Shown piece after piece: positions 435 to 45,173 of a stretch of DNA of 64,000 nt. Source of the stretch: an uncultured Candidatus Rokubacteria bacterium (lineage in GTDB: Bacteria; Methylomirabilota; Methylomirabilia; Rokubacteriales; DASRDR01); the NCBI GenBank assembly GCA_963805625.1, contig CAWDVE010000017.1, forward strand, positions 768,001-832,000. Reading direction: 5' to 3'. The stretch's first letter is position 1. The number at the start of each line of letters is the position of its first letter. The position numbers and the translations under genes are program-made. The notes under the pieces were generated by a model. It had not been told where the DNA came from, ran no database searches, and saw nothing but the letters and a program-made list of their open reading frames with translations.

Positions 435-562
435 GTCGACCTCCGTTGGCGTGCTCCGGTTTGAGTCACGGGCTTTCTCGCGTGGGCTCCTCGATCGGCA
501 CCAGCGGGGGCACCAGGCTCACCAGCATGGACATCGAGCCTGACGGCCATGCACGCCGTCTC

Positions 563-3317
563 CTACTTGCCCTTGGCCCGATGCTTCACCAACGCATCGG
601 GCTTCAGGAGCTCGAGACCCTTCCCGGCGTTGTAACCGTGGATCTCCTTCACGTCGAGCTTCCGCATGAACGTGATGATCTCCTTCGTCACGACCTGGCC
701 CGGCACCATGATCGGAAAGCCGGGCGGGTACGGGATCACGAACTTCGCCGAGACCAGCTCGGGCCCCTTGGCCAGGCGCTCGTCGATCTCCTTGCTGTTG
801 AGCTTGACGTGCTCGATGTTGGTGGCATCGTACGCCATGTAGTAGGCCTCGCGCATGTGCCCCTCTTGCGTGCCGCTCTTCGGGTCGTCGCGGAAGGCGT
901 CGTGGAAGCGCTGGAAGTCGGGCAGGTCCGGCACGTCCTCGACCAGCGACTTCACCCGTGCCTTGAAGACCGCGCGCTCCTCCTCGCCCCCCTCGGCGAG
1001 CCGCTTCTCGATCCCCCGCGCCATGTCCGCCAGCGCCTTGATGAGGTGCGCCAGGTCGCTCCGCGTGTTGTTGATGTTGATCTGGACGAGCACGCTGTTC
1101 CGCGAGGTCTTGTTGATCTGGATGTCGTGCTCGCTGGCCAGCAGCGCCTTGAACTGACTGCCGTCGTAGCCCGCGGCGCCGCAGAGGAGCGTGATCCGGG
1201 TCGGGTCGAGGTAGAACTCGTCGTTGTCCAGTGCCCCCATCGTGTCGGTCATCGTCCAGCCCGGCGCGCCCCAGTCGGTGAAGCCCGACTTCCGGTACTC
1301 GGCGGGGATCATCTCGGCCGGCGTGGCGATGCGGAAGTACTTGGAGATGAGCGGGTGCGCGTTGACCTGCCGCCGGATCTCGAGCGCCAGCTGGATGGCC
1401 CGCCCGACCAGCTCGTAGCCCTCCAGCTCCATCTGCCGCCGCGCCACGTCGAGCGAGGCGATGATCTGGAGGTTGGGCGAGGTCGAGGTGTGGGTGAAGA
1501 ACGCCTCCTTGAAGGACGGCTCGACGGTGTGGAAATCCTGGTCCGCGACCACGATGATCGAGCCCTGACGGAGCGAGGACATCGACTTGTGGACCGAGTC
1601 GGTCTCGTAGACGCGGACGCGCACCTGGTCCGGGTCCGGGAGGAGCTCCATGTCGAGCAGCTTCGGGTCCTTCGGGTCCAGCTTGCCGGTGCTGGCCTTG
1701 AACGTCTCGTAGCGCTTCCGGTACGCGGGATCGCGCATCAGCTCGCGGATCGCCGCGGCCGCGCCCATCGCCGTGCGCCGCCGCAGGAACGGCGAGAAGC
1801 GCGCGAACCCGAACCACGCCTCGTCCCAGAGGAAGATGAGGTCCGGCTTGATGGCAAGACACTCCAGCATGGTGCGCTTCACGTTCGCGACGTGGCCGTC
1901 GAACGTGCAGTTCGTCAGGACCACCAGCTTCGCACGGTCGAGCTTGCCCTCGGCCTTCAGCTGGAGGAGCGCCTTCTTGATCGGCTTGATGGCGAGGCTC
2001 CCGTACATCGAGAACTGCGTCAGCGGGAAGGCGTCGATGTAGAGCGGCTGGGCGCCGGCCAGCACCAGCCCGTAGTGGTGCGACTTGTGGCAGTCGCGGT
2101 CGATCAGGACGATGTCGCCCGGCTTGAGGAGCGCCTGGTGGACGATCTTGTTGGACGTCGACGTGCCGTTCGTGACGAAGAAGCTGCGGTCGCCGCCGAG
2201 CGCGCGGGCCGCCTTGTCCTGCGCGACCTTGATGTTGCCGGTCGGCTCGAGGAGGCTGTCGAGGCCGCCGGTGGTCGCCGACGACTCGGCGAGGAACAGG
2301 TTGGCGCCGTAGAATTCGCCCATGTCGCGGATCCAGTTGGACTTGAAGATGGACTTGCCCGCGGGCCACCGGCAGCGCGTGGAAGGTGCCGATCGGCCGC
2401 TGGGCGTAACGCTTGAGGTTGTCGAAGTAGGGCGTCTCGTAGCGGTCCTTCACGCCGTCGAGGACCGCCAGGTGGATCTCCATCGGCTCCTCGACCCCGT
2501 AGAAGATCCGCCGGATCGGCGCCGCCTCGTCGGAGCCGGCCAGCCGGGCGACGTCACGGTCGGTCGTGAGGTAGACGTCGAGCTCCGGCCGCCACCGGCG
2601 CACCATCTGCGCCAGAAGGATCCCGAGATCGCCGCTCCGGGCCGTCTCGGCGACCTGCACCTGGCGGGTGAGTATCTCGCGCAGGACCGGCACCGTGTAC
2701 TGGGAGGGGTAGGCGAAGCCGTCGCTGATCACCACCGCCTGGAGGTTCGGGTTGAACACGACGGCGAGGACGGCGTCCTCGAAGCTGCCGACGACGACGG
2801 GCTCGTAGACGAACTCGTCCTCGGTCCGGCGCAGCCGCCGCAAGGTCTCGCGGATGCCCGGCCACATCGCCCGCTCCGCCGGGGAGACGAGCAGGATCTC
2901 GAAGTAGGGCCGCCGACTCTGGCCGCGTCCCACCGACGGCGGGAGGATGTCGGGCACACGCGCATCCCCCTCCTCGTCAGCCTTCCAGGGCTCCTGGTCG
3001 TCCCGGTAGCTGCTGGAGAGGAGCGCGCCGCTGATCCGCTGCACCAGGCGCGCGAAGCCGGTCCAGTCGCCAGTCTGCAAGCGCTCCTGGACCTGCGCCA
3101 TCAGACCAGGCCCGGGATAGCCACAGAGCGCCTCGAGCGGTGCGATCTCGGCCAGCAGCGCTTGCGGATCCATCCCGGGACCGCCCGCCGCCCGTGGACC
3201 GCTTGCCGCGAGGGCCTTGGCCACGCGATTCAGCGTGCGCCAGCGGTCGACCCGTGCCTCCGAGGCCGTGAAGAATTCGTTCAGGCCGAGGGTCCGATCA
3301 TTCGACGTCGTCGCCAT
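563..3317 (-). CDS. Orn/Lys/Arg decarboxylase (PLP, fold type I) with long N-terminal extension, interrupted by one +1 frameshift near 2358-2360
   Basis: The N-terminal frame reads to ...FHALPVARG. Removing one base of the CCC run at 2358-2360 continues as KSIFKSNWIRDMGEFYG into ORF 563-2323, which has FVTNGTSTSN, DRDCHKSHH, WDEAW, the PLP-lysine motif DSVHKS and C-terminal PYPPGFP. Confidence 0.88.
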
Positions 3318-5580: not shown

Positions 5581-7692
<2,112 letters not shown>

Positions 7693-7914
7693 GGCGCCGG
7701 GACGCGCTAGCGTCCACGGTGAGCCGGCACGACCCGCCCGATCGCGTGCCTTCGCTCGCGACGCCCCCCTGAGGTGAGGTGTCTCTTGTCCGGCCTCCGT
7801 ACCCCCCTATCCTCCCGAGGTGGTCACCTACGCTCTTCTCCGTGCTCGTGGGGGGGAGCCAGCGGAATCTACGCCGCCCTCCGGCGAGGCCGCCCGGAAA
7901 GCTACTGGGTCGGC

Positions 7915-8286
7915 GCGTTCCCATCGTGGGTGCGTCCGTGCCCAACTATTTCCTGGCTCTCATCCTGATGACGATTCTCGGCGGCGAGCTCCGCCCGGTG
8001 CCGATCGCCGCCTCTCCATCGACGTGCTGCTGGCGCCTGAGCGCGCCGCCCTGGCTGGGTCTCGAGAGCGCTCCGATCGACAGGATCCTGGACGAGGCCC
8101 GGGCCGAGCGTTGACCGACAAGCGGGACCAGCTCTACCGGCAGCTGTTCGACCTCATATCCCGGAGGCGACCTACATCTGCACGGTGCACGCCAACTACG
8201 TCTCGGGGTCGCGCGCGAACGTGCGGAACTGGGAGCAGCTCCCGGCCACCCTGGTCCGGTACGCCAACGTGTGGATCGAGCGCTAG
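7915..8286 (+). pseudogene. Remnants of a peptide/nickel ABC transporter (permease piece and solute-binding-protein C-terminus)
   Basis: IVGASVPNYFLALILMTILGGELR resembles a DppB/OppB helix. Broken frames RILDEARA / KRDQLYRQLFDLI / YICTVHANYVSGSRANVRNWEQLPATLVRYANVWIER* resemble a family-5 SBP end. Confidence 0.5.
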
Positions 8287-8287
8287 A

Positions 8288-8342
8288 TTTTGGACAAATT
8301 TGGGGGTTCCCTTGGGACTTCCGCGGCGCCGGGGGGCATGAT
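8288..8342 (+). promoter_or_regulatory. Conserved tandem-repeat promoter motif, copy 1
   Basis: TTTTGGACAAATTTGGGGGTTCCCTTGGGACTTCC followed by CATGAT at 8337; matches copies at 11492 and 13457. Confidence 0.65.
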
Positions 8343-8357
8343 GTCAACGGACGAAGC

Positions 8358-8609
8358 ATGGCGCACGACGCTGCTCATCAGGGGGCGGAGAGCCCCGACC
8401 CGGGCCGGGCCCACACCCAGTCGGCGCTCCCGTATGCGAAGGCGTTCGTCGTGCAGTTCAGTGCGGAGACCGACCCCCGACTCGGGAACACCACCGGGCG
8501 GGTCGAGCATCTTCAGACGGGGCGCCGTTCGCGCTTCGCGTCGGCCGACGAGCTGCTCGCGTGGATCACGGCGATGCTCGCCGCCGCGGATAGCCCCGAC
8601 GATGCCTGA
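8358..8609 (+). CDS. Small hypothetical protein (about 83 aa) convergent with the wHTH-AAA regulator
   Basis: ATG at 8358 just after motif copy 1; protein-like core LPYAKAFVVQFSAETD...GRVEHLQTGRRSRFASADELLAWITAML. Confidence 0.7.
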   Translation: MAHDAAHQGAESPDPGRAHTQSALPYAKAFVVQFSAETDPRLGNTTGRVEHLQTGRRSRFASADELLAWITAMLAAADSPDDA

Positions 8610-8620
8610 TGATGATCACG

Positions 8621-11467
8621 TCAGCGTGGCGGCTTGCGCGGCGCGGCGGCCCCGGCGGCCCGCCGGCTGGCGCGCCGCTCCAGCATGTGCGCCCCCTGGG
8701 CACGCGCCACCGCTCGAGCTCTCTCGAAGCACTCCTCCGATTCACGGATCTCGCGCGGCCGCGGACGCGTCTTGGAGCGGGCCCCTCGGAGGATCAACTC
8801 TCCTCTGAGCCGCCAGAGCTCGGCCTCGAAGAGGCGGGCGGCGGTGTCGCGACAGTGGGTCAATCCGGTGTCGGTGGCGGCCAGTCCCTCATCCACGCGG
8901 TCCAGCCGCAGACATGCCTCGGCGAGCAAAGAGAACCACAGCGAAGCGGCGAGGCTTATCTTGGCCCGCCGCAGCACGTCGAGGCCCTCGCGGATCTCCG
9001 CAAGGCCTCGCTCACCCTCGCCCTGCTCGACGAGTGCCCGGCCGCGACTGACGAGCGCGCTCCCGGACCAGAGCGGGAAGCCGTACTCGTCCGAGAGATC
9101 GGCCGCCCTGGTGGCCATTCTCGCAGCCTCCCCGCACTCGCCGTTGAGCACGTGTAGAAACGCGGCATACGCCGCGGCGTGGGCGACCGTGAAGGGGCGG
9201 CCGAGCCGCTCGGCCAGCACCATGGCCTCCCCTTGCACGACCCGCGCACGATCCGGTTCGGCGCGCACCCATCGGCGGAGGCTTTCGAAGGACCGCGCCG
9301 CCACGAGAGGATTGACCCCGTAGAGCCGATCCGCCTCGTCAGGACTCACCGACGACGATAGCGCCTTGGCCAGGAAGGGTTCCGCGACATCCAGGTCGCC
9401 GCCCCACAAGGCGACCCCCCCTCGGAGGAAGGAGGCCTCCACCACGGCGGACGGATTCAGCTGCTCTGAAAGCGGCGACAGTTCCTCGCCGACCCGTTCC
9501 GCCTCGCGCAAGTCACCGCCGTTGCTGTGCAGCAGGCAGAGAGCAGAGAGGACGTCGAAGAGCCCGGCAGGGTCCGCAAGCTGCTCGCAGAGGCGTCGCG
9601 CGCGTGTCAGGTTGTCGAGCAATCCCTCGGCCACGTACCCGGCGGTCTGGGTCAGCACGACGGTGTACAGCTGGCGCAGTCGCAGCTCGTCCCGGGCTCG
9701 GTCCGGCGTGTCCGGCAGCTCACCGAGAAGCCGGAGGGCCGGTTCCAGACACGCGGCGGTGTCGCGGTAGGCGAGCCGGCCGTACGCCCGCGTCGCGGCT
9801 TGCTCGAGGTAAGCGACGGCCCGGCGTCGATCGCGGCTGTGCTGGAAATGAATGGCCAGCTCGCCCGACACATCGGCGGTTCGGGCCGCGTACCCGGCCT
9901 CGATGCGTTCGCCGATCTGCTGGTGCAGGATGACCCGCCGGCTCGGCGAGAGGCGGGCGTAGAGCACGCGTTGATAAAGAGCGTGCCCGAAGGCGTAGCG
10001 GACCGCCAGAGTGCCGTCCGGCCACTCGACGCTCCGTCGGTGGTGAAGCCAGCGACGAGGGCGGCACAGCTCATCGCAGAGCGACTCGACCTCGTCCAGT
10101 GCGCGGCCGAGTCCCGCGGCCACCGCCGGCGCGTCGAACATCACCCCGCCGACACTCGCGACCTCGAGCACGTCTCGCTCGGCGCGCGACAGGAACCTGA
10201 GCTGCCCCTGGATGAGCTGCTGGATGTCCTCCGGTACCTCCTGCTCGATCGCCGCGCGGTCAACGGACAGCCGCCAGAGGCCCCCATTTTCGGCCAGCCA
10301 GCCGCGGTCCAGGAGATGCTCCACCAGCCTCACCATGAAGAGGGGATTCCCGTCCGTATGCGCGTGGACGACGGCGGCGACGTCGTCGTCTACCGTCGCG
10401 CCGCGGAAACGAGCCTGCAGGTATGCCGTCACGTGGCTCCGGCTCAGGTACTCGAGCGCGATTTCCCGGCACTGACGGTGCGTGCGCAGCGTCGCCACGA
10501 CCTGGGCGAACGGGTGGTCGAGCACCGTCGCCTCCGCCGGCCGATAGGTGCCCAGGAGCATGACTCGCGCCCGATCGGGCCGCTGCGCGAGCACCGATAC
10601 GAGATCCGCCGTGCCCTGGTCGCTCCAGTGCAGGTCCTCCAGGACCAGCACCAGCGGGCGATCGACGGAGACTGCCTCCACCAGGCTCGCGAACTCACGC
10701 AGCATGCGGTGGGGCGTCGTGTCCGTGTCCCCGCGCCCGGGCGGCCCCGCGTCGGTGGGCGAGTGAAGCGAGGGCATCCGCGCCAGCCAGCTCGGGGCGA
10801 CGGCGCGCAGCGTGGAGAGCAGCCGGTCGTGGGCCGGTCCATGGCTCAGTCGCTCCAGGGTCTCCAGGGCCGGCATGTAGGGCTCCCGCTCGCCGTGCTG
10901 CTCCACGCACTGGCCATAGCCGATCAGGACGCCGTCGGCCGACGCCCGCACCGCGTCCAGAAAGGTCTCGACGATCGAGGTCTTGCCGATGCCGGGCTCG
11001 CCCTGCATGAACACCACCTGGCGCTCGCCGGCGGACGCGGTCTGGAAGATGGCCCGGAGCGTCGCGAGCTCGGTTTCGCGGCCCACCAGGGTCGCGGGGG
11101 ATCTCGCTCCCGGGACGGGCTGGGGCACGACTGCCGACTCGAGTCCCCGCTCCCCGGCTGGGGTCCCGTGTATTCGGGCGATGAAGCGAACCCCCCGGCG
11201 GTGAACGGTCTCGATGACACGCGGGGCTCGCGGATCGTCCCCGAGAGCCCGCCGCAGCTCGCCGAGCGTCTGCGTGAGCGTGTCGTCCGACACCACGACG
11301 TCGCCCCAGACGGCCGCGTGCAGCTCTTCCTTCGTGACCAGCGCACCGGGCCGCTCGGCCAGATAGCGCAGCAGAGCCCAGGCCTTGGGTCGCAGTTCCA
11401 CCGGACGGTCGCCGTGCCATAGGCGTCCCGCACGCGGGTCCAACCGGTAGGGCGGGAACTCGATCAC
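8621..11467 (-). CDS. OmpR-type winged-helix + AAA ATPase (STAND-like) + TPR-like transcriptional regulator
   Basis: N-terminal FPPYRLD...LRPKAWALLRYL...LVTKEELHAAVW...IETVHRRGVRF, Walker A GEPGIGKT, Walker B LVLEDLHWSD, TDGNPLFM and a helical C-terminus with EAELWRLRGEL. Confidence 0.88.
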   Translation of the reverse strand: MIEFPPYRLDPRAGRLWHGDRPVELRPKAWALLRYLAERPGALVTKEELHAAVWGDVVVSDDTLTQTLGELRRALGDDPRAPRVIETVHRRGVRFIARIHGTPAGERGLESAVVPQPVPGARSPATLVGRETELATLRAIFQTASAGERQVVFMQGEPGIGKTSIVETFLDAVRASADGVLIGYGQCVEQHGEREPYMPALETLERLSHGPAHDRLLSTLRAVAPSWLARMPSLHSPTDAGPPGRGDTDTTPHRMLREFASLVEAVSVDRPLVLVLEDLHWSDQGTADLVSVLAQRPDRARVMLLGTYRPAEATVLDHPFAQVVATLRTHRQCREIALEYLSRSHVTAYLQARFRGATVDDDVAAVVHAHTDGNPLFMVRLVEHLLDRGWLAENGGLWRLSVDRAAIEQEVPEDIQQLIQGQLRFLSRAERDVLEVASVGGVMFDAPAVAAGLGRALDEVESLCDELCRPRRWLHHRRSVEWPDGTLAVRYAFGHALYQRVLYARLSPSRRVILHQQIGERIEAGYAARTADVSGELAIHFQHSRDRRRAVAYLEQAATRAYGRLAYRDTAACLEPALRLLGELPDTPDRARDELRLRQLYTVVLTQTAGYVAEGLLDNLTRARRLCEQLADPAGLFDVLSALCLLHSNGGDLREAERVGEELSPLSEQLNPSAVVEASFLRGGVALWGGDLDVAEPFLAKALSSSVSPDEADRLYGVNPLVAARSFESLRRWVRAEPDRARVVQGEAMVLAERLGRPFTVAHAAAYAAFLHVLNGECGEAARMATRAADLSDEYGFPLWSGSALVSRGRALVEQGEGERGLAEIREGLDVLRRAKISLAASLWFSLLAEACLRLDRVDEGLAATDTGLTHCRDTAARLFEAELWRLRGELILRGARSKTRPRPREIRESEECFERARAVARAQGAHMLERRASRRAAGAAAPRKPPR

Positions 11468-11491
11468 GGCGCTTGCCGGAGGGTCGAGCCG

Positions 11492-11612
11492 TTTTGGAGA
11501 AATTTGCGGATTCCCTCGGGACTTCCCGAGGGCGACCCCGTCATGATCGCCGCCGTGAAGAAAGGGCGCGAGGCCCGACCCAAGCTAGGTCGTAGAAGGG
11601 TCTTCCGCACGT
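11492..11612 (+). promoter_or_regulatory. Conserved tandem-repeat promoter motif, copy 2, plus about 70 bp of shared downstream sequence
   Basis: TTTTGGAGAAATTTGCGGATTCCCTCGGGACTTCC with CATGAT at 11542, 25 bp from the regulator start codon; downstream GAAGAAA..GGCGC.AGGC.CGACCCAAGC.AGG..G is shared with copy 3. Confidence 0.7.
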
Positions 11613-12002
11613 CTACGCACGCGGGCGGTGACGCCTGGCGTCTCCCAGAGAGAAACGCCGTCATTCCGCGAGGATACCACGTGCCAGACCTCCACCACGT
11701 ATGCTCTTTGCGCCGACGACGCCGCGGCCAAGGACCAATCGTGGCCGCCATAGGACCAACGTCCCATAGACGCCCGCGCGAAGTGATGATAGAGCTCTTA
11801 TCGTGACCTCAGACCAGTACAAACGTCATGCACTCGCTCATCGACGACTCCAAATGGCCCGTACCGGCGGTGCCGATGTGGTAGCTCGGGGGTGGGGCGA
11901 GGGCCGTCTTCTCCATTGAGGTGCCGCCGCTCCGGGATCGCCGTTCGCGCGTCCGATGGCGGAAGCAGGGTCTACACGCACGAACTGAGAGGAGAGAGAC
12001 GC

Positions 12003-12575
12003 ATGTTTAAGCGAAGGATCACTGCAAGCCTGTTGAGTGGTGTCGTGGCGGTTGGTCTGGTCCTGTCGGGTCAGGCCGCGGCGGCCTTCACGGCCCAGGA
12101 AGCGGCCAAGCTGGATGCCGAGGCGAAGGCCACGCTGGCGAAGTTCCAGGCAGACACTAAGGGTTCCGCGGAGGTGTTCGCCAACGCCAAGGGTGTCCTG
12201 GTGTGCCCGAAGATCACCAAGGGGGGCTTCATCATCGGCGTGGAGTCAGGCGACTGCGTGCTGAGCAAGGGTGCCCCAAAGCCGATCTACTACGGGACGT
12301 CCGCGCTCAAGGGGGGACTCCTCGTGGGCATCTCCTGGTACTCGATGATCCTGGTGCTGAACACGGACGCCGCGGTGGCCAAGTTCACCAGCGGCACGCG
12401 CGAATGGGAGATGGGCGTGGATGCGTCGGTGGCCGTGGCCACAGTGGGCGCTGGCGGCGCTCTCGATACGACCAATCTGAAGAAAGCCATCGTGTCCTTC
12501 ATCTTCGGCGAGAAGGGGTTAATGGGGGATGTGTCCTTCTCGGGCTCGCGATTCAAGAAGCTCGATGTCGAGTGA
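12003..12575 (+). CDS. Secreted YSC84/SYLF-like lipid-binding protein
   Basis: GGAG RBS, signal peptide, AKGVLVCPKITKGGFIIG...G, WEMGVDASVAVA, FIFGEKGLMGDVSFSGSRF. Confidence 0.75.
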   Translation: MFKRRITASLLSGVVAVGLVLSGQAAAAFTAQEAAKLDAEAKATLAKFQADTKGSAEVFANAKGVLVCPKITKGGFIIGVESGDCVLSKGAPKPIYYGTSALKGGLLVGISWYSMILVLNTDAAVAKFTSGTREWEMGVDASVAVATVGAGGALDTTNLKKAIVSFIFGEKGLMGDVSFSGSRFKKLDVE

Positions 12576-12689
12576 TATCCGAAGCAAGCCACCTCGGACC
12601 TTGCTAGGCTTGGTGCCTGGACAGGTGGCCCGTGAACCGACGCTGTCCGTGTACTCCACACTCCACAACCTGTAGAGGAGGACGCTGCG

Positions 12690-13100
12690 ATGCTTCGCTC
12701 TCTCGGTCCGGTGCTGGGACTGGTCGCCATGGTGATCTTTGTTTCAGGGACCTTCGCGGAGGCTGCAGACGTCAACGTCAAGCTGGGCCCCCTGAACAGC
12801 TCGGGTGAGTCGGGCACGGCGACCCTCTCGGACGTAACGGGAAACAAGACCAAGGTCGTGATTGCCGTGACCGGACAGCCCGCCAACGTCCCCCAGCCGG
12901 TGCACATTCACAAGGGGTCGTGCGCTCAGATGGATCCCGCGCCGGCGTACGGACTTACGACCCTGACTGACGGCAAGTCGGAGACAGTGATCGATCAGCC
13001 ACTCTCCACGCTGCAGAAGGAGCGGTTCGCCATCAACGGCCACAAGTCCGCTCAGGAAGCCAGCACGTACGTCTTCTGCGGCGACATCCCTGCCCAGTGA
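12690..13100 (+). CDS. Secreted hypothetical protein with HIH-x-G-x-C motif (Cu/Zn-SOD-like or CHRD-like fold possible)
   Basis: GAGGAGG RBS, signal peptide, NSSGESGTATL, QPVHIHKGSC, AINGHKS, VFCGDI. Confidence 0.65.
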   Translation: MLRSLGPVLGLVAMVIFVSGTFAEAADVNVKLGPLNSSGESGTATLSDVTGNKTKVVIAVTGQPANVPQPVHIHKGSCAQMDPAPAYGLTTLTDGKSETVIDQPLSTLQKERFAINGHKSAQEASTYVFCGDIPAQ

Positions 13101-13456
13101 GGCGAGAGCGTGCAGGCTGGCGACCGGGGGTGACGATCGGAGGGACGACGCTCCCACTGACCCCGCGGTGACGGCCCGCAAGCTCGCGTAGACGCACGGC
13201 CCGGGACGGCTCACGGACTCGCCCGACTCGCGGTAGAGCGGCGGTCACGAGCGTGGCCTCCCGGGCCGTCGACCTGTCTGGACTCGACCGCGCGGGCCCA
13301 GTGGGCGAGGCGACGAGGATGAGGATATCCTGGGCCTGTTGGCCCTGTACTTCGGCCGGTCTTCCGGGCCGAATCCGCAGACCTCCAGCTGACGGCCCGT
13401 AGAGGCGACGGTGCTCGACCGCCTTTTCGCCCGGGCCGAGCAAGGGAGGTGAGCTG

Positions 13457-13575
13457 TTTTGGAGAAGTTTCCGGATTCCCTCGGGACTTCCCAGTGCGGC
13501 CCGGTCATGATCCCGGCGGGGAAGAAATGGCGCCAGGCTCGACCCAAGCGAGGACGGCAGAAGGCTTCCGCACGC
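13457..13575 (+). promoter_or_regulatory. Conserved tandem-repeat promoter motif, copy 3
   Basis: TTTTGGAGAAGTTTCCGGATTCCCTCGGGACTTCC with CATGAT at 13506; about 120 bp alignable to copy 2. Confidence 0.7.
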
Positions 13576-13958
13576 GCGGGCGCTCCCTCAGGCCCCTGCC
13601 CAGCGGGAATCTCCCGGCGCCAGATCCCGATGTGTCGAAGGCTCCGCCCAACTACGCGCGCGTCATTGACGGAAAGCCAGTCTTCGAGACGGGGTCGATC
13701 ACGTGGGGTCCCAAGGTGATCGACCAGATTCTCAAAGCATATATGTAGGACCGGACTCCGAGACGGTGGTGAGAGGGTTGCCGGGCCGGCCTACAGTCGG
13801 CCCGCCCGGTGACCATCCCGGTCCACCCCACGCGGGGTGGTGGCGGGAAGACAAGTTGGCCACACGCGATCCCGACGCAGGGATGGCGGCGGCCCGTGGC
13901 GAACGGAGCGACGGGAGAGGCTGCATGTTGACCTCTGCCACATCATGGGAGGTGCCAC

Positions 13959-14432
13959 ATGACACTCATGGAAATGCTCGCGCCCACCGTGCAGCGCATC
14001 ACCACCGCCCTGCCGTCGCTCCTGATCGGGCTCGGCATCTTGGTGGCGGGGTATGTGATCGCCAAGATGGCGGCCGGGATTGTGAGTCGGGTCCTGAGCC
14101 GCACGCGGCTGGACACGCTGACGGCCGAGGGCATCGGCCTCACGAAGCCCGGCGGGCCGGACGCGGTGCGGGGGGTGGCGGCGCGGATCGCCTTCTGGCT
14201 CGTCATGCTCTTCGTGTGGATCGGCTTCTTCAATGAGGTAGGGCTCCCGCTGGTGGCCGAACCCCTGCGGGGGGTGGCGGACGCGATCGCCCGCGTCGCG
14301 CCCAGCGTGCTGCACGCCGGCTTGATTTTCGTGGCGGCCTGGATCCTCGAGTCTCGGGAGGCGGCCGGTCGCGCCGTCGCGCGGGCCCTCGGCGAGGGCG
14401 CGGGCTCGGGGTCGAGGCTGGGGAGCGCGTGA
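13959..14432 (+). pseudogene. Truncated CmpX/TM-helix mechanosensitive-channel-like membrane protein
   Basis: GGAGG RBS; LPSLLIGLGILVAGYVIAK...RTRLD...ARIAFWLVMLFVWIGFFNEVGL...PSVLHAGLIFVAAWIL, after which the pattern breaks off abruptly. Confidence 0.55.
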
Positions 14433-15706
14433 CCATGAACCCACTCGAGAGGCTGCCCGTGGCGGACAATCGCGGGACGATCCAACGGAATGGCGTCGTC
14501 TCAGGCGCGCTCGCGCCGAGAGGGGTCGCCGACCGGGCCGCGGCCGCCATCTCGTTCGCCGCGGCAACGCCTAAATCCTGTTGGCCGGAGGACCGGGTCA
14601 CCGCTCCTCACGCGGTGGGCGAGATCGTCGCGAGCACCCTCGCTCGCCGGGACGTCGAGCGCGCCCTCCGTTTGGCCTTGGAGGAAAACGGGCGTCTCCG
14701 CGAGCGCCTGGAAGCCGAAAACGTCTATCTCCACGCAGAGCTCGACGAGGCCCACGACATCCGTGAGATCGTCGGGCGGAGTCCAGCCCTCAGGGCGACT
14801 CTGGAGAAGGTCCGGCAGGTCGCCGACACGGACGCGCCCGTCTTCCTCCTCGGCGAGACCGGCACCGGCAAGGAACTGCTCGCCCGAGCGCTCCACGGGC
14901 ACGGTCCGCGGCGCGACCGGTCGTTCATCACGGTAAACTGCGCCGCCCTGCCCGCGGCGCTCATTGAAAGCGAGCTCTTCGGCTACGAGAAGGGCGCCTT
15001 CACCGGCGCGACGCAGGCCAAACCGGGACGTTTCGAGCTCGCCGACTCCGGGACACTTCTCCTCGACGAGATCGGCGACCTCGACCCCGCCCTTCAGGTA
15101 AAGCTCCTCCGCGCTCTCGAAGGTGGCGAGATCCAGCGGCTCGGCTCGACGGTGACGCGGAAGGTCGATGTCCGGATCATCGCGGCGACCAACCGTGACC
15201 TGCGCCGTGAAATACGGGAAGACCGGTTCCGCCCGGATCTCTACTACCGTCTGAGCGTGTTCCCGATCGAGGTGCCGCCTCTTCGGGAGCGCCGCGAGGA
15301 CATCCCCCTCCTCGTCTGGCATTTCATTCAATCGCGCCAGCGAGCGCTTGGCCGGACGATCACGAAGATTCCGAAGACCGCGATGGCGGCCCTCCTCGCC
15401 TACGACTGGCCCGGGAACGTCCGCGAGCTGCAGAACGTGGTCGAACGGGCCCTGATCCTTTCGCGCGGCTCGGTCCTCCGCGTCGACGAGGCGCTCGGAC
15501 CGGGGGCGACGTCCCCGGACGGAGCCGGCCGGCCCGCCCCCGGAGAGTCACTGCGGGACTTGGAGCGGGCCCACATCGCGCTGATTCTCGAGCGCTGTCG
15601 GTGGACGATCGAGGGTCGCGGACAGGCGGCCGAGCGCCTGGGGCTGAACCCGAGCACGCTGCGGAATCGCATGCGGAAGCTGGACATCAAGCGCCCCCCA
15701 GTCTAA
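14429..15706 (+). CDS. Second sigma-54 activator (AAA+ and HTH intact, GAF sensor missing); possible pseudogene
   Basis: Similarity to the first activator starts at VGEIVASTLARRD (about 14616); [24 protein letters not shown] and HTH are present. Confidence 0.75.
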   Translation: MTMNPLERLPVADNRGTIQRNGVVSGALAPRGVADRAAAAISFAAATPKSCWPEDRVTAPHAVGEIVASTLARRDVERALRLALEENGRLRERLEAENVYLHAELDEAHDIREIVGRSPALRATLEKVRQVADTDAPVFLLGETGTGKELLARALHGHGPRRDRSFITVNCAALPAALIESELFGYEKGAFTGATQAKPGRFELADSGTLLLDEIGDLDPALQVKLLRALEGGEIQRLGSTVTRKVDVRIIAATNRDLRREIREDRFRPDLYYRLSVFPIEVPPLRERREDIPLLVWHFIQSRQRALGRTITKIPKTAMAALLAYDWPGNVRELQNVVERALILSRGSVLRVDEALGPGATSPDGAGRPAPGESLRDLERAHIALILERCRWTIEGRGQAAERLGLNPSTLRNRMRKLDIKRPPV

Positions 15707-25808: not shown

Positions 25809-26783
25809 ATGATGGCCGAGGAGCGCAAGCCCATCGCCGAGACGGTGACCCGGGAGATCGTCGGGGGTATAAGGGGGGTCGGAGACATCGCGAACGCGGT
25901 CGTCGACACCGTGAGCGGGAGCCTCGTCAGGCTGATCAAGGGGACGGGGGCGGTCGGCACGACGCTGACGTCGACCCTCGCGGACGTGGTGCGCGGCGCG
26001 ATTCAGGGGACCTCGCAGGTCGGTGGCGACGTCGGCACGGCGGCCAAGGGCGCCGCCGTGGGCGTCTTGCGGGGCACGAAGGAGGTCGGGGTCCAGACGC
26101 TGGACACGGTGAGCACGACCGCCCGCGAGGTGGTCAAGAGCGTATCGGCCGTGGGCGGCGATGTCGGCGTGGCCATCCGGGGGGCGGTGGACGGTATCAT
26201 CGAGAGCACCGCGCAGACGGGAGGCGACGTGGGCGCGGTGGCCAAGGCGACGGTCGTCGGTGTGCTACGCGGAACCAGGGAGGTCGGAGGTGAAACGATT
26301 TCCGCGGTCAGCTCCACCGCCAGTCAGATCGTGAAGAGCGTCGCGGCCGTGGGCGGCGATGTCGGCGTGGCCGTCCGGGGGGCGGTGGACGGTATCATCG
26401 AGACCACCGCGCAGACGGGAGGCGACGTGGGCGCGGTGGCCAAGGGGACAATCGTCGGTGTGCTGCGCGGAACCAAGGAGGTCGGAGGTGAAACGGTTGC
26501 CGCAGCCAGCTCCACCGCCAGTCAGATCGTGAAGAGCGTCGCGGCCGTGGGGGGGGACGTTGGCAGCGCGGCCAAAAACGCGGTCGAGGGTGCCATCCAG
26601 GGGGCCAAGGAGGTCGGGGTGAGCACTGAGGAAGCGGCGTCCGCGGCGGCCACGGGGGCCCTCAAGGCGGCTGGCGAGATCAGCCATGCCGCGGTCGACC
26701 AGGTCACTCGGGCGGCGACCGGGGTCATCTCCGGGGTCAAGGTCGTCGTGAAGGAGCCCTTCCAGAAGGGCGGGAGGTCGTAG
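25809..26783 (+). CDS. 22-aa tandem-repeat amphipathic-helix protein
   Basis: GGGAG RBS; ten consecutive 22-aa units beginning GGDVG, GGET or GV. Confidence 0.8.
   Translation: MMAEERKPIAETVTREIVGGIRGVGDIANAVVDTVSGSLVRLIKGTGAVGTTLTSTLADVVRGAIQGTSQVGGDVGTAAKGAAVGVLRGTKEVGVQTLDTVSTTAREVVKSVSAVGGDVGVAIRGAVDGIIESTAQTGGDVGAVAKATVVGVLRGTREVGGETISAVSSTASQIVKSVAAVGGDVGVAVRGAVDGIIETTAQTGGDVGAVAKGTIVGVLRGTKEVGGETVAAASSTASQIVKSVAAVGGDVGSAAKNAVEGAIQGAKEVGVSTEEAASAAATGALKAAGEISHAAVDQVTRAATGVISGVKVVVKEPFQKGGRS
26137..26552 (+). repeat. 198-bp intragenic tandem duplication (3 x 22 codons)
   Basis: GTGGGCGGCGATGTCGGCGTGGCC occurs at 26151 and 26349, and the sequence after each copy is nearly identical. Confidence 0.85.
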
Positions 26784-38281: not shown

Positions 38282-38902
38282 ATGAGCGCAGGCAGCAGAG
38301 CCGCACGCACCTATACGGCAGAGGAAGCGCTTGCCCGCCTCGTCGCAGGCAACCAGCGCTTCGTTCGCGGGCAGGCGCGATTCCCGACCGTGCAGAAGGA
38401 GATCCTCGCCGACCTCGCGAAGGGTCAACGCCCCTACGCGACGATCATCGGCTGCAGCGACTCGCGCGTGCCGCCCGAGCTGGTCTTCGACGCAGGGTTT
38501 GGGGAGCTGTTCATCGTGCGCATCGCGGGCAACGTGATTTCACCCGAGGTCATGGGTACGCTGCAGTACGCCGCTCTGCACTTGCACACACCGCTGTTCG
38601 TCGTGCTGGGCCACGAGGGTTGCGGTGCGGTGCAGGCTGCACTCGGGGTGAAGCGGCAGGGCGCGCGGGAGCGCGCCCGCATCGCGCTGCTCCTGGAAGA
38701 GATTCTGCCTGGATTGCGGGATATCAATGCGGAACTGACGCCGCAGGACCAGCTCGGGGCCGCGGTAGAGGCCAATGTGCGCTGGTCGATGCATCAGCTG
38801 CTGGACACGCCCGAAGGTCAAGCCCGGATGGCGGAAGGGGTCCTGAAGCTCGTGGGGGCGATCTACGAACTGAAGACTGGCCGCGTGCGGTTCTTGCACT
38901 GA
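38282..38902 (+). CDS. Beta-class carbonic anhydrase
   Basis: GNQRF, GCSDSRVPPELVFD, RIAGN, GHEGCGAV zinc ligands. Confidence 0.92.
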   Translation: MSAGSRAARTYTAEEALARLVAGNQRFVRGQARFPTVQKEILADLAKGQRPYATIIGCSDSRVPPELVFDAGFGELFIVRIAGNVISPEVMGTLQYAALHLHTPLFVVLGHEGCGAVQAALGVKRQGARERARIALLLEEILPGLRDINAELTPQDQLGAAVEANVRWSMHQLLDTPEGQARMAEGVLKLVGAIYELKTGRVRFLH

Positions 38903-38941
38903 AACGTCGCCGGCCCGTCGTGCCGGGCCTGGACGCGCGAC

Positions 38942-39030
38942 GGTGCTTACGCATTCTTTCGCCTCATCGAGACCGCGCTCGGCATCGGCGTGGCCTGGGC
39001 GATCGGTCTCGTGCCGCGACTCGTTCGGGT
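38942..39030 (+). pseudogene. Possible FUSC-family C-terminal remnant
   Basis: Isolated GAYAFFRLIETALGIGVAWAIGLVPR helix with no start codon or upstream domain. Confidence 0.3.
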
Positions 39031-39120
39031 CGACGAGGACGGGGCTCCATCAAGAGATCCGTGAGTGAAGTCGGGGCGGCGCGGCGACCTGGTGGGTCAC
39101 TCGCGCCCTCCGGTCAGCAC

Positions 39121-39564
39121 TCATGCCGGGGTCTTCAGGGATGGGAAGAGCCGCCCGTAGATCACCCCGATCACGGTCACGAGGATGCCGGTGGACCATC
39201 CCAGCATCAGCACTCCCACCGCCGCCTCGATCGGGCCGAGGAGGCGCCATGGCTCGGGCAACACCACGTCGCCATAGCCGACGGTGGTGTAGCTCGTGAG
39301 CGAGAAGTAGACTGCCGATTCGAGGTCGGGCAGCCCGCCGACCAGGACGAAGAAGAGCGCCCACACGATCGCCTCGGTGAGATGCAGCAGCAGCAGGGCG
39401 CCCACGAGCTGCGTCATGAAGAGCTCCGCGACGAGTCGGCCTGGACGGTCCTTGCGCCCGCTCCAGTGCCTGGTCACGCGTCCGACCGACGTGACGGTGC
39501 CGACACCATGAATGATCACCGTGATCGCCGTGAGGCCGAGCGCGGACAGGATCAGTCTGATCAT
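39121..39564 (-). CDS. Small potassium-channel-family protein (Ion_trans_2)
   Basis: YFSLTSYTTVGYGD selectivity filter between TM helices; ATG at 39564 after GGAG. Confidence 0.88.
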   Translation of the reverse strand: MIRLILSALGLTAITVIIHGVGTVTSVGRVTRHWSGRKDRPGRLVAELFMTQLVGALLLLHLTEAIVWALFFVLVGGLPDLESAVYFSLTSYTTVGYGDVVLPEPWRLLGPIEAAVGVLMLGWSTGILVTVIGVIYGRLFPSLKTPA

Positions 39565-39658
39565 CGACGTCTCTCCGAGCCCGCGGCGTCGCGAGTGCAC
39601 GAGACCGCGCCTCGTGCGCTGCGCGTGAGTGCCTGTCGCTGTTGAACCATCGACAAGC

Positions 39659-40732
39659 TCACCCTGCCGTCGGGATGAAATAGAACATGAGGGCGATGAT
39701 GAGATACACGGCGATGAGCTGGACCCCCTTGTACCAGTTCGAGCGCCCGTCCCCGGCCACCAGCGCTCCGATCAGGACGGCCATGAAGAGCGACCCGATC
39801 TCCGGACGGCTGAAGGAGAGCTCGAGCGGCGACGGCGCCACGAAGTAGCTCGCGAGCACCAGCACCGGCGCGACGAAGAGGGCGATCTGGATGCAGCTGC
39901 CGAGCGCGATGCCCACCGTGAGGTCCATCCTGTTCTTGCGCGCCATCGCGATCGCGGAGCCGCTCTCAGCGGCGCCGCCGACGATCGCCAGGAGGACGAT
40001 CCCGATGAAGACCTGCGACATTCCGAGTGCCGTCCCGGTGCCCTCCGCCGCGCCGACGAGGATCTCGCTCATCCACGCCGCGAGGAGCGACGCGGCGAGG
40101 AGGCTCCCGATCGCGCGCGCCCGGCTCCAGTGCGGACCGTCGTGGGCCTCGTGGCCGCCTGCATCTCCCGTGAACTCGTCGGGGTGGGTCTTGAGCATGA
40201 AGACGAGGTACAGACCGTAGGCCGCGAGCAGCACGACGGCGAGGCCGACGTTGAGGAGCGCTTCCTCCCGCACGGTCTCCGTGGGCGCGAAGAGGCGGCT
40301 GAACGCGCTCGGCACGGTCAGGCTGATCGCCGCCAAGAGCATCATGGAGCTGTAGACCCGCGCGGCTGGCGCCTGGTAGCTCTGGTTGTGGAAGCGCAAC
40401 CCGCCGACCAGGAACGCGATGCCGAGCGCCAGCAGCAGGTTCGCGAGGATCGCGCCGACGATGGAGGCGCGCACCATGTCGAGAAGCCCCGCCCTCAGCG
40501 CCACCAGGGCGATGATCAGCTCGGGAGCGTTGCCGAAGGTCGCGTTGAGGAGCCCGCCGACCGCGTCGCCCGTGTAGGTCGAGAGCTGCTCGGTCGACCG
40601 AACGATGAGGCTCGCCACCGGCACGATCGCGGCTGCCGCGGCAAAGAACACCCAGGGCTCCGGCGCGCCGGCATGCTCGAGCGCGAGCGTGACCGGAATG
40701 AGGGCCAGCAGCCAGTTCACCGAGGGCTTCAC
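39659..40732 (-). CDS. Ca2+/H+ exchanger (CAX/ChaA family)
   Basis: GGLLNATFGNAPELII, ANLLL, GSCIQIALFVAP, DGRSNWYKGVQL. Confidence 0.9.
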   Translation of the reverse strand: MKPSVNWLLALIPVTLALEHAGAPEPWVFFAAAAAIVPVASLIVRSTEQLSTYTGDAVGGLLNATFGNAPELIIALVALRAGLLDMVRASIVGAILANLLLALGIAFLVGGLRFHNQSYQAPAARVYSSMMLLAAISLTVPSAFSRLFAPTETVREEALLNVGLAVVLLAAYGLYLVFMLKTHPDEFTGDAGGHEAHDGPHWSRARAIGSLLAASLLAAWMSEILVGAAEGTGTALGMSQVFIGIVLLAIVGGAAESGSAIAMARKNRMDLTVGIALGSCIQIALFVAPVLVLASYFVAPSPLELSFSRPEIGSLFMAVLIGALVAGDGRSNWYKGVQLIAVYLIIALMFYFIPTAG

Positions 40733-40963
40733 GTTCTGGCCTCCCTTCGGACGTGGTGCTCATCGACGCGATGCGGGCACGGCTCTGCAGAGGAGCCACG
40801 CGCCGCGCCCGCCCAGGTGCAGATGCGGGCGTGGAGAATGGGCGGAGCGCGCCGGATCTGGAGAGAAACGCACGCCGTCCACGAGGCGAGTCCGATCGCC
40901 GGCCACGCCAGCGAGTCGGCGAGCGCTCAGTGACCTCCCGGACCGCCGCGCGGGACGCCGGGC

Positions 40964-43258
40964 TCAGCGCCGGCGGCCGCCTCCGCCGCCCCCGCGACCG
41001 CCGCCCCCGCCCCCCGCCCGCGCCCCGCCGCTGGATGATCGCGCGCCGCCGGCCTGGCTGATCCCGCCGCTGCCGCCGCTGCGCTGATAGGAGGCCTCGC
41101 GAGCCGCTCCTGCGCTCCTGGCCTGCTGCTGGCGATTCAGGTCGGCCGCCGTCTCCTTCCCTTGGCCGAAATCGGCCCGGTTCCAGCCCTGTCCGGTGTT
41201 CTGCTCCCAGCCGTCGGCGCCGCGCCGGTAGGTGTTCCCGTCGCGCCCCGCGTAGACGTCATTGGAGCGCGGCGCGGCGCTGCGCTGCTGGGCGGTCTGC
41301 TGGGCCCGTTGCTGGGCCTGCTGGCGCTGCTGCGGCGTCAGCGACTGCGCCCGGCTCTCGAGGTTGGACCGCACCTGGTTCTGGTTCCAGCGGTTGTAGG
41401 CGTCGCTCCGGTTGATGTTGACGGTCCGGTCGATGTCCACGTCGCCGTACCCGCAGCAGCCCCAGGCCCCACCCCAGGCGGCCGCCGTCATCGCCCCGAA
41501 GGCGAAGCCCGTCACGGCGCCCCACCCGAACCCGGCGCCGTACCCGTAGGTCGGGGGAGGCGGATACCAGTACGCGCCGACGTAGACCGGGGGGTAGACG
41601 TAGCCGGTCCCGTAGACGACGACGCTGGACGGGGCGACCACGGTCCCGTAGTAGCCGGGCGTGTAGCCGACGTACACCGTCTGGGGGGTGCTGCTGTACA
41701 CGTGGACGTACGTCACGTAGTGCAAGGGGGAGCCGGGCGGGATCGTATAGATCACCGCCGGCACCGTCGTGGCCACGGTCCACGGCGCCATGGGCGCATT
41801 CGCCACGAACCACACCCCATCCTTGAGCGAGTAGTAGGTCTTCGCGTCGACCTGGATCACCGGGATGGGAGAGTTCACCGCGTGGTGGAGCGGCGTGCCC
41901 TCGATCGGCTCGAACTTCGGGGCCCCGTCGTACGTCGCCTTGTAGGTCGTCGCCGTCCGGCTCACCTCGGCGGTCTGGGGGATGCTGTTATCGATGAGGG
42001 CTTCCTTGGCCTGGGGCGTGCCCGGCACCGAAGCCAGAACGGCGCCCCGGGGGTGACTCTCCGGGATCTTGGCGAAGGCGGCGGGAAGCTTGTCGTGCGC
42101 GACGTACTCCCAGGGGCCCTCGGCCAGGGACGGGCTGCGGAACCACCGTCCCGACAGGAGCACGTAGTGGCGCTGATCCGCCGGGTCGAGCACGATGTTC
42201 GCGGACGAGTTCCGGACGTGGAGGAGGTCGCTTCCTTCGATGGGCTCGTAGTCGGGGCGGCCCTCGGTCTGGATCAGCTCGGCCGGCACCGTGCTGACGT
42301 GGACGGTCGGGAGCACGCCCCGCGCCGCGGCATCCTTCACTCCGGGGCCAGGATCGTCGAGGAGGTTCACTCGCTGGCTCTTGGCCACGGTCTGCATGGC
42401 GGCATCGAGCCCGGCGGGCGGCCGACCCGCCACGCTCCAGGGGCCGTCGAGGGTGTTGGCCTCGAACCACCGTCCGAGCGCCCGCAGGTAGTGCTTGCCG
42501 CTCTTCTGGTCCACGAGGATCAGCGCCCACGAGTTGACGACCCGCTGAAGGCTGGAGCCGTCGGCCTGGCGGAGGACGGGCTTGCCGTCCACGAGGACGA
42601 GGAGAGCTGGCGTCATGCTGAAGATGACGCGCGGCGGGTCGTTCTTGACCGCCTGAGGGGTGCCGGCGCTTCGCTGGGCCTCGGTGATGGCGAGCGCGGC
42701 CTGGACCCGGTCGAGCGAGATCCGCGACACCTCCCGAGGCAGACGCCGCTCGAGCACCTTCTGGTACTCGGCAGCCTGGTCGGGCTCCGACGGGAACACG
42801 ACCTTGTCGACCCGGAAGTCGGCGAGCGCGACCAGCCGGTTGACCTTGTCCACCTCGGCGCGCGCGGAGAACCACACGACGCCGAAGTGCTGGAGCGGCG
42901 ACGCCGTGCTCTCCACCGAGACGGCCGCGCGCGCGTGGAGGCGCGTGCCGTCCCACTTCTCGATCTGCGGCTGGTAGACGGTGAATGTCCGGCCTCCCTC
43001 CGTGGCTTCACGGGGCCAGGGGGCGTTCCCGGTCCCCTCCCGGGAGGCTGCCGGTCCGGCCGCAGTGGTCGGAGTGGCGGGCCGAGCCGCCGGGGAGGCG
43101 GGAGCGCTCGGAGGGGTGGCGGCTTTCGATGCCGGGGCGCCGGATGCCGGCATGGACGGCGCCTGTGCCCAGGCCGCGGGGACTGTCAGCTGACCCCCGA
43201 GGAAAAGGAGTGTCGCGACTGCCGTCCACCGCGTCGTCCACGTGATCATGAGTGTCAT
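40964..43258 (-). CDS. Large secreted hypothetical protein with aromatic-rich repeats and Q/R/G-rich tail
   Basis: Signal peptide, WPRE..TVYQPQIEKW, repeated Y...G.WF...L.GPW units, VYVGYTPGYYG, NDVYAGRDGNTYRR, low-complexity C-terminus. Confidence 0.75.
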   Translation of the reverse strand: MTLMITWTTRWTAVATLLFLGGQLTVPAAWAQAPSMPASGAPASKAATPPSAPASPAARPATPTTAAGPAASREGTGNAPWPREATEGGRTFTVYQPQIEKWDGTRLHARAAVSVESTASPLQHFGVVWFSARAEVDKVNRLVALADFRVDKVVFPSEPDQAAEYQKVLERRLPREVSRISLDRVQAALAITEAQRSAGTPQAVKNDPPRVIFSMTPALLVLVDGKPVLRQADGSSLQRVVNSWALILVDQKSGKHYLRALGRWFEANTLDGPWSVAGRPPAGLDAAMQTVAKSQRVNLLDDPGPGVKDAAARGVLPTVHVSTVPAELIQTEGRPDYEPIEGSDLLHVRNSSANIVLDPADQRHYVLLSGRWFRSPSLAEGPWEYVAHDKLPAAFAKIPESHPRGAVLASVPGTPQAKEALIDNSIPQTAEVSRTATTYKATYDGAPKFEPIEGTPLHHAVNSPIPVIQVDAKTYYSLKDGVWFVANAPMAPWTVATTVPAVIYTIPPGSPLHYVTYVHVYSSTPQTVYVGYTPGYYGTVVAPSSVVVYGTGYVYPPVYVGAYWYPPPPTYGYGAGFGWGAVTGFAFGAMTAAAWGGAWGCCGYGDVDIDRTVNINRSDAYNRWNQNQVRSNLESRAQSLTPQQRQQAQQRAQQTAQQRSAAPRSNDVYAGRDGNTYRRGADGWEQNTGQGWNRADFGQGKETAADLNRQQQARSAGAAREASYQRSGGSGGISQAGGARSSSGGARAGGGGGGRGGGGGGRRR

Positions 43259-43294
43259 CGGTCCCTCCACCCACCAGTCGCTACAAGGGCACAA

Positions 43295-44326
43295 CTATCT
43301 TGGCGTGAGGCTCTTGCTGAGCCAATCCAGGTAAATCTGCACGTACGCGTGCGATTCCTCCTCGATCCGCTTCCGAAGCAGTCGCGCCGTGAAGCCCTCC
43401 AGCAGGCTCGAGCGTCCGCGCATGCCCGCCAGCAGGTAGTATCCCTGGCCGTCGGGCGGCGTTCCCAGCCACAGCACGAGCAGCGAGGCGTCCACGTACC
43501 GGCTGGCGTAGAGCTGCTTGTTGGCGATGTAGATGTTCCCGCCCGGCTCCCGCTGGATCACGAGATGGTGCAGCGTGATCGACGGCTCGGATCCAATCCC
43601 CCCCTTGGCCCAGTAGAGAAACTGCTCGACGGGAAGGCCCGGAGCCTGCGGGAAGCGCTCGAGATACGTGGCCAGGGGATTGGCCAGCGCGTACAGGTTC
43701 GTGGCGCCTCGGATCAGCGTCCGGAACTCTTCGGCGACCGCGCGAGGCTGCCGCTCGTTGTGCGCGGCACCCAGCCCACCGTCCCCATTCCGCAAGTATG
43801 CCTCAGCGTAGCCCAGCATGAGCTGTCGGGTCAGCAGATTCGCCCGTCGTCCCGCGTCGGCCGCGGCCCAGTCCACATCGGCCCGAAACCGGGCGATGGC
43901 CCGGTCACCCAAGCGGAGGGCGCAGTCACCCGGTTGGCACCGTTGCAGGGCCGCGAGCTCTCCCGCGTCGAGGACAAGGTCTCCGAAGTCGTTGATCGTC
44001 GGGGATGCGCTCAGCTTGCGTGACACGCCCAGGTCGGCCGCCTTGCGGAACCCCTCCACGTCCCGGATCCAGCCGACGAGCCGTTCCTTGTCGTCGGGAA
44101 TCCGGACCGCGCCGGCGACGGCGATCTCCCGCCCTTGGGCCGGTATGGTCTTGACCACGGTCTGGCCGGCGCGCAGCTGACCGATCTCGGCCGCCGAGAA
44201 TCCGAGCCGCTCCATCAGCGCCCGCTCCATGTCGACCGGCTGAGACTGAGCGATCCGGGGACTCGACACGAAGACGGCACTTCCACACATGAGGATGAGG
44301 AGGACGATCCAGCGCGTACGGATCAC
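43295..44326 (-). CDS. Secreted hypothetical protein
   Basis: GGAGG RBS, signal peptide, C-x4-C, FLYWAK, KQLYASRYVDASL. Confidence 0.7.
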   Translation of the reverse strand: MIRTRWIVLLILMCGSAVFVSSPRIAQSQPVDMERALMERLGFSAAEIGQLRAGQTVVKTIPAQGREIAVAGAVRIPDDKERLVGWIRDVEGFRKAADLGVSRKLSASPTINDFGDLVLDAGELAALQRCQPGDCALRLGDRAIARFRADVDWAAADAGRRANLLTRQLMLGYAEAYLRNGDGGLGAAHNERQPRAVAEEFRTLIRGATNLYALANPLATYLERFPQAPGLPVEQFLYWAKGGIGSEPSITLHHLVIQREPGGNIYIANKQLYASRYVDASLLVLWLGTPPDGQGYYLLAGMRGRSSLLEGFTARLLRKRIEEESHAYVQIYLDWLSKSLTPR

Positions 44327-44457
44327 GACCTCCCGGTAGCCCCGAGGTTGCCCTGACTCAGGCCACTCGGTCGCTCGGATGGTCGAGGTACCTGTCCGAG
44401 GACCGTGAGCGACGAGGGCCTCCGGGACCGTCTCTCAACCCTGGAGGGAGCCCGAGC

Positions 44458-45102: not shown

Positions 45103-45158
45103 GTGCACATGCTCCTCCACGGCATCGAGGATGGTAATTGCCCAATGTCCAACTGAGT

Positions 45159-45173
45159 GCAACACGCGTGCCC
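45159..45173 (-). promoter_or_regulatory. Candidate sigma-54 promoter
   Basis: Minus strand GGGCACGCGTGTTGC (GG-N10-GC with TTGC), about 57 bp upstream of the beta-barrel start. Confidence 0.55.

Follow-up and report, generated by a model that had tools for sequence, protein, structure and literature searches.

We examined a 64,000-nucleotide stretch of DNA (the window) from an uncultured Candidatus Rokubacteria bacterium (assembly GCA_963805625.1, contig CAWDVE010000017.1, positions 768,001 to 832,000), in which a 35-bp motif occurs three times around a large regulator gene and a gene for an 83-amino-acid protein. An earlier interpretation of the bare letters (the sequence-only reading) had placed CATGAT 49 to 50 bp after the start of each copy, copy 2 at 25 bp from the start of the divergent regulator gene, and copy 1 ahead of the small open reading frame (ORF) on the regulator's other side. 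All of these positions were confirmed, with CATGAT at offsets of 49, 50 and 49, the regulator starting at a GTG at 11467 on the minus strand, and the small ORF converging on the regulator's stop at 8621. The features on which the argument rests are as follows, in window positions.

8288..8342, plus strand: putative operator-promoter copy 1, with two 11-bp units, a third unit with a -35-like GGGACT (8314), a 17-bp spacer and the -10-like CATGAT (8337); it faces the small gene.
8358..8609, plus strand: small gene of 83 amino acids, with a 59-amino-acid core predicted to form three strands and one helix; the large family to which it belongs has no match in Pfam.
8621..11467, minus strand: regulator of 948 amino acids, with an OmpR-type winged helix (21-95), a STAND-type ATPase (127-304; Walker A 156-163, Walker B Asp278) and predicted TPR-like helical repeats (about 496-934).
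11492..11547, plus strand: putative operator-promoter copy 2, with GGGACT at 11518, an 18-bp spacer and CATGAT at 11542; back-to-back with the regulator start.
13457..13575, plus strand: putative operator-promoter copy 3 (CATGAT at 13506) with the start of a leader; a local duplicate of the copy-2 region.

The copies are built alike, from two 11-bp units, a third unit carrying GGGACT, 17-18 variable bases and CATGAT. GGA-like cores had been proposed at every 11-12 bp; the repeat unit is indeed 11 bp, and the GG cores fall at offsets 4, 14 or 16, and 26. Tandem repeats had also been expected just upstream of the -10 box; the repeats are there, but the last one occupies the -35 position, 17-18 bp before the -10-like box. 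Among 35 extracted sites, four of them false by eye, the information per base was 1.42 bits in the units, 0.22 in the spacer and 0.16 in the upstream flank. Given the constant length of this spacer, the two boxes read as a -35/-10 pair with a poor -35. The three copies scored 58.6-61.8 against a matrix derived from them, values that are high by construction; on both strands of the 7.27-Mb genome, the next-best site scored 18.3. Hence the motif is not genome-wide: its only three copies in the genome are all at this locus. Copies 2 and 3 are alike for about 80 bases past the motif, so these two copies are not independent, while copies 1 and 2 have the units and CATGAT in common and little else.

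The regulator matched Trans_reg_C at residues 21-95 (E 3e-17) and AAA_16 (E 5e-26) in the Pfam scan. It carries the hallmarks of STAND NTPases (Walker A, Walker B and the GxP motif), and over 83 sequences Gly159, Gly161, Asp278 and Gly373 were invariant, with Lys162 and Pro375 conserved in at least 90%. In the structural model (mean predicted local distance difference test score, pLDDT, 88.8), residues 496-934 form helical repeats with pLDDT mostly above 90. The best Foldseek match was 6mfv, a STAND protein with a TPR sensor (E 1e-11), at 13% identity and a TM-score of 0.28 over the whole chain, indicating a common architecture and not a close relative. The proposed order of winged helix, AAA ATPase and TPR was therefore upheld for the first two parts; the third consists of predicted helical repeats, which have Pfam TPR hits in some homologues and none in this protein. 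No BTAD was found at E 0.01, the ATPase starting at residue 127, while a control protein from locus L094 gave BTAD at E 5e-25; the regulator is thus not a SARP. The Pfam scan also returned no receiver domain and no C-terminal LuxR-type helix-turn-helix, the DNA-binding domain being N-terminal. The general type is common, with winged-helix STAND regulators making up 4,140 of 7,995 scored candidates at E 1e-30, and our search of the open-access literature found no study of this BTAD-less architecture or of the small-gene family.

The 83-amino-acid ORF is a real gene by its substitution pattern, the ratio of non-synonymous to synonymous rates (dN/dS) being 0.19-0.63 in all eight pairs compared. 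Its profile collected 2,684 clusters at 50% identity (E 0.001). The 59-amino-acid core was modelled as three strands and a helix (beta3-alpha) with a pLDDT of 91.8, and residues are conserved across distant members. Pfam and PDB sequence searches with the alignment gave nothing below E 0.1. Foldseek with the model gave no match at E 0.001, which does not show a new fold; the best Z in the fold comparisons was that of 2yzt (Z 5.3, root-mean-square deviation 3.2, 50 residues aligned), within the range of common arrangements. The HicB N-terminal and dsRBD-like folds (2yzt, 1wv8, 6g1n) likewise have three strands and a helix, but the small protein has no sequence match in Pfam or PDB, and no toxin-like partner was seen. 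The small gene was detected in 47 of 200 genomes of the phylum, and around two proteobacterial centres in 10 and 8 of 61 genomes, some of these matches being weak. Atlas look-alike clusters include Chloroflexota, and Atlas searches with two homologues returned unnamed clusters only, or nothing. In viral contigs, the single weak match was judged spurious.

We then considered where the small gene lies. Its 79 matches fell in 73 loci of about 9 kb; 66 of the matches share their locus with a winged-helix gene, which is divergent within 700 bases for 47. The chance of finding such a gene in a random 9-kb stretch of this genome is about 0.5%. Among the best 80 of 582 metagenome loci, a divergent gene was present in 41 of the 56 having enough upstream DNA. 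The neighbours belong to three architectures, namely Trans_reg_C-AAA, SARP/BTAD-AAA-TPR and C-terminal BTAD, and the association extends over many bacteria of soils. Behind the small gene, we surveyed 113 ORFs (67 of 180 matches were left out for too little DNA or no ORF), which are unrelated to one another; the cargo changes between loci. A rough heuristic assigns a signal-like N-terminus to 49 of these ORFs, compared with 711 of 6,540 in the genome control, and in 14 the reading frame overlaps the small-gene stop by four bases. The small gene would be an accessory target, usually back-to-back with the regulator and first in a variable operon that often encodes secreted proteins. Beside many related regulators, a secreted-protein gene stands directly behind a putative promoter of this type. 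In the lineage of the window, the small gene has shifted to the other end of the regulator gene while retaining a putative operator of its own.

The motif follows this lineage. A degenerate pattern of it was found in nine of 41 related genomes, at 23 sites versus one control site, and these are nine of the ten genomes with a small-gene match; in the tenth (G008), the small gene is solely of the paralogous type and goes with a different repeat. All six close loci (L013-L018) have one copy back-to-back with the regulator start and another before the small gene. Of 12 loci, 10 retain copy 1 ahead of the small gene; the DNA further upstream is unrelated in several. Small genes that lie 8-39 kb from the regulator in G019 and G166 still bear the motif. 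In G030 and G127, additional copies stand on other contigs before unrelated genes, which argues that the motif can mark a dispersed regulon; those of G030 precede polyphosphate kinase 2, a class I aldolase and a 450-amino-acid protein, and the copy beside its regulator faces an Orn/Lys/Arg decarboxylase-like gene. In G127 (L318/L321, G127:C633:136-239), two operator-promoter copies stand back-to-back, each with CATGAT, and no regulator was seen between them.

The same layout lies between divergent winged-helix STAND regulators and small genes in distant metagenome loci. In 45 de-duplicated loci of this kind, 5-mers recurred 377 times at lag 11 (shuffled 10.6) and 172 times at lag 22 (shuffled 9.9), and a GACT-type box stood 17-19 bp before a -10-like box in 30, four of them spurious by eye. 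SARP/BTAD-class loci (n=43) instead showed a TGACG/TAACG array at lag 11-12 (45 recurrences at lag 11 versus 7.8 shuffled; motif log-likelihood 309 versus 98-106 shuffled in a search confined to intergenic DNA), which by eye ends 8-10 bases before the -10-like box. We compared recognition-helix residues with repeat cores in 42 distinct combinations from 59 of 67 loci, with eight loci dropped, 11 re-phased by hand and the traits picked by eye. Lys at the Thr65 position went with an ACC core in 8/8 versus 1/34, Asp at the Asp62 position with a GG core in 7/11 versus 1/31, and Trp at that position with an AAG core in 4/4 versus 0/38. The regulator described here has Asp62, Thr65 and GG cores; its paralogue on contig C10 is of the Lys form, and an ACC-type array precedes the small gene of that pair. 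The repeat sequence thus appears to track the regulator class and the recognition-helix residues, although the phylogeny-corrected test lacks power. On C10, the paralogous regulator, its small gene and a secreted-protein gene lie between two repeats of about 170 bases with a tRNA-like part (L151, G000:C10:1760500-1770900; repeats at about 1761918 and 1767873, by eye), which suggests an integrated cassette.

These comparisons make it likely that the 35-bp block combines an operator and a promoter for the neighbouring winged-helix STAND regulator, and that the regulator would thereby activate the small gene and the cargo. The operator proposed by the sequence-only reading, with control of the small ORF, is thus well supported by comparison; what changes is that the last repeat takes the -35 position, that copy 3 is a duplicate and that the secreted-protein genes are variable cargo. 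The motif was found to be tied to the genomes of the small-gene lineage. By analogy with known systems, the regulator would most likely be a signal-gated activator. The steps were drawn from AfsR, GlnR and MalT: the TPR-like sensor would bind a ligand and the ATPase would oligomerise; several winged helices would then line up head-to-tail on the 11-bp repeats, each a helical turn from the next, as far as the poor -35 box; the bound regulators would recruit RNA polymerase to CATGAT and turn on the small gene and whichever cargo genes follow the other copies. The position of copy 2 suggests that the regulator may also control itself. The weakest step is the last one, in which the small protein would act in trans on the regulator circuit as a feedback modulator.

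Several results weigh against this scheme, in addition to the manual handling of the helix comparison. A sigma-70 consensus scan of 8100-14000 returned no promoter, and the -35 and -10 calls are therefore comparative only. Among seven RNA runs, present as assembled contigs of distant relatives, the four that were aligned showed neither start sites nor strand. In nine de-duplicated in-phylum loci of this class, lag 11 was weak (z 1.5), with lag 22 at z 6.0. Three Asp-type proteobacterial loci violate the GG rule, and a tree-based independent-pairs test found one or two pairs on supported branches, too few for its sign test, which was not significant. Only 13 of 29 regulators were preceded by the strict signature, against 0.24 expected from shuffling. 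Finally, a small gene lay within 5 kb of 13 of 44 related regulators and within 40 kb of 15, which means that the small gene is not needed for the design.

The design of a STAND activator on 11-bp repeats is already known from AfsR; relative to AfsR/afsS, the locus is a variant whose partner gene is unexplained. afsS is small and adjacent to afsR. According to PMC10936776, AfsR, a large SARP of Streptomyces coelicolor, unites an OmpR-type winged helix, a NOD/STAND ATPase and TPR in one protein, and the afsS promoter has 11-bp direct repeats and a poor -35 box; our regulator, with its TPR-like part, and its putative promoters resemble both. The same paper gives the SARP layout as direct repeats 11 or 22 bp apart with the 3' repeat 8 bp from the -10 element, whereas our regulator lacks BTAD and its last unit stands 17-18 bp ahead of CATGAT. 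The close layout, as in SARPs, does occur at the SARP-type neighbours of this small-gene family. The small gene here belongs to a family with a predicted beta3-alpha fold. Tandem head-to-tail binding near the -35 is described for AfsR and GlnR (PMC10936776, PMC10235972), and our regulator resembles OmpR/PhoB-family activators such as GlnR (PMC10235972) in its Trans_reg_C winged helix and in its putative tandem sites around the -35. Unlike that family, it has no receiver or membrane domain, and its input would come through the STAND ATPase and the TPR-like sensor. In MalT of Escherichia coli, the DNA-binding domain is of the LuxR type and C-terminal, and the inhibitors are enzymes of the pathway or parts of transporters; here, in contrast, the winged helix is N-terminal and the candidate partner is a 59-residue domain. 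According to PMC10427625, MalT is a STAND activator switched by oligomerisation and blocked by separate proteins including the inhibitor MalY, which makes MalT/MalY a model for a partner protein of a STAND regulator.

With regard to the small gene, we favour feedback modulation in trans as its most likely role, because no gene lies behind it in this lineage and yet its operator is kept, also in copies 8-39 kb away; a role as leader or cargo is about as likely. There is close to an even chance that, with the operator assignment correct, the small gene is a mere leader cistron or independent cargo with no action on the regulator. The four-base overlaps and signal-like N-termini of the ORFs behind it fit such a role, most regulators have no small gene, and in the 26 longer proteins with its domain, found among the best 7,994 candidates scored, the fusion is to cargo-like parts and in no case to an annotated STAND domain. 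A fusion candidate, P0086, was rejected as a eukaryote-like repeat artefact. However, the small gene of this lineage has nothing behind it while its operator is kept and its dN/dS stays below 1, its fold is confidently predicted with residues conserved across distant members, and it accompanies three regulator architectures while the cargo changes. The broader proposal, that the small beta3-alpha protein is a widespread, previously undescribed feedback subunit, made under the control of the regulator's operator and binding STAND regulators of the Trans_reg_C, SARP and C-terminal-BTAD types to damp or tune them, with a helix-repeat code that predicts regulons of uncultured bacteria, is tentative and rather less probable.

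It is improbable that the regulator acts mainly as a repressor that sits over the -35 box and its own start and silences transcription both ways until released by a signal. Such a repressor would fit the overlap of the last unit with the -35-like box and the start of the array about 25 bp away from the regulator's start codon, but a -35 far from consensus with a kept spacer length and -10-like box is the pattern of activator-dependent promoters such as afsS (PMC10936776), and the characterised STAND transcription factors MalT and AfsR are activators (PMC10427625, PMC10936776). Slightly less probable still is a reading with no link to the regulator, in which the copies arose passively by local duplication or serve another factor (e.g. 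an alternative sigma factor). Copy 3 is indeed a duplicate in a region full of broken genes, and the common history of linked genes alone can give covariation; but copies 1 and 2 share little beyond the units and CATGAT, the motif does not occur throughout the genome, in G030 and G127 it stands on separate contigs ahead of unrelated genes, and its sequence changes with the regulator class.

Behind copies 2 and 3, the operator-promoter reading meets the following features.

11548..11700, plus strand: leader of about 150 bases, conserved in the genus behind copy 2; no reading frame is kept in all copies.
11905..11943, plus strand: short relic similar to the sigma-54 activators encoded at 5980 and 14429; behind copy 2 of relatives, such a gene is intact.
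12003..12575, plus strand: Ysc84/SYLF-domain protein whose N-terminus looks signal-like; it counts as variable cargo and starts about 455 bp after copy 2.
12690..13100, plus strand: 136-amino-acid protein with a signal-like N-terminus and no Pfam or NCBIfam match; variable cargo.
13527..14432, plus strand: broken genes behind copy 3, a chimeric 73-amino-acid ORF whose end matches part of the relatives' 144-amino-acid protein and a 157-amino-acid MscS-type fragment (512 amino acids in G019).

Rfam gave no match in 7700-14000. A short block containing TACCACG is repeated in some copies of the leader, and a conserved peptide in it was rejected because the start codon is lost here and in L015. Directly behind copy 2, a Ysc84-type gene is found here and in one of the six close loci, and a sigma-54 activator in the other five; two more distant genomes have an amino-acid decarboxylase there. 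Control of the secreted proteins at 12003-13100, also proposed earlier, is possible and weakly supported; this cargo is variable and starts about 455 bases behind the box. Copy 3 is, from its extended similarity, a local duplicate of the copy-2 region that faces broken genes, and the duplicated copy retains a relic of the regulator start in two relatives. The locus is bracketed by sigma-54 activator paralogues at 5980-7692 and 14429-15706, which are 81% alike over 300 bases, the second without a GAF domain.

Some members of the regulator group, in facing an amino-acid decarboxylase gene, recall CadC. In the window at 519-3317 (minus strand) and in about 6 kb upstream of it (L324:5811-12435), we observed an Orn/Lys/Arg decarboxylase-like gene split by a frameshift near 2300, after which come two aspartate-alanine antiporters and an aspartate 4-decarboxylase, and at 38282-46542 a carbonic anhydrase-like gene, a calcium/proton exchanger and an NhaA antiporter. 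A homologue of the split decarboxylase gene stands immediately behind the regulator's putative operator in G019 and G030. The island looks enriched for pH-homeostasis genes; its decarboxylases, aspartate-alanine antiporters, NhaA and calcium/proton exchanger give a hint of acid or pH stress.

The locus offers a concrete candidate operator, a promoter layout and residue-to-base predictions for an abundant type of regulator, and it places a family of 2,684 unannotated small-protein clusters in one regulatory context. Should the small protein bind the regulator, bacterial NLR-like switches would have in it a small modulator dedicated to them.

Three further observations were made in the genome. 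On G000 contig C10, at about 25000-122000, weak matrix matches lie in AT-rich DNA unlike the 69% GC genome, a possible island or contamination (contamination 6.26%). In the window, three tandem 198-bp copies occur within a 324-amino-acid ORF at 25975-26568, and AT-richer intergenic DNA at 55332-55450 holds a 43-bp inverted repeat, 77% complementary, with its arms 33 bases apart.

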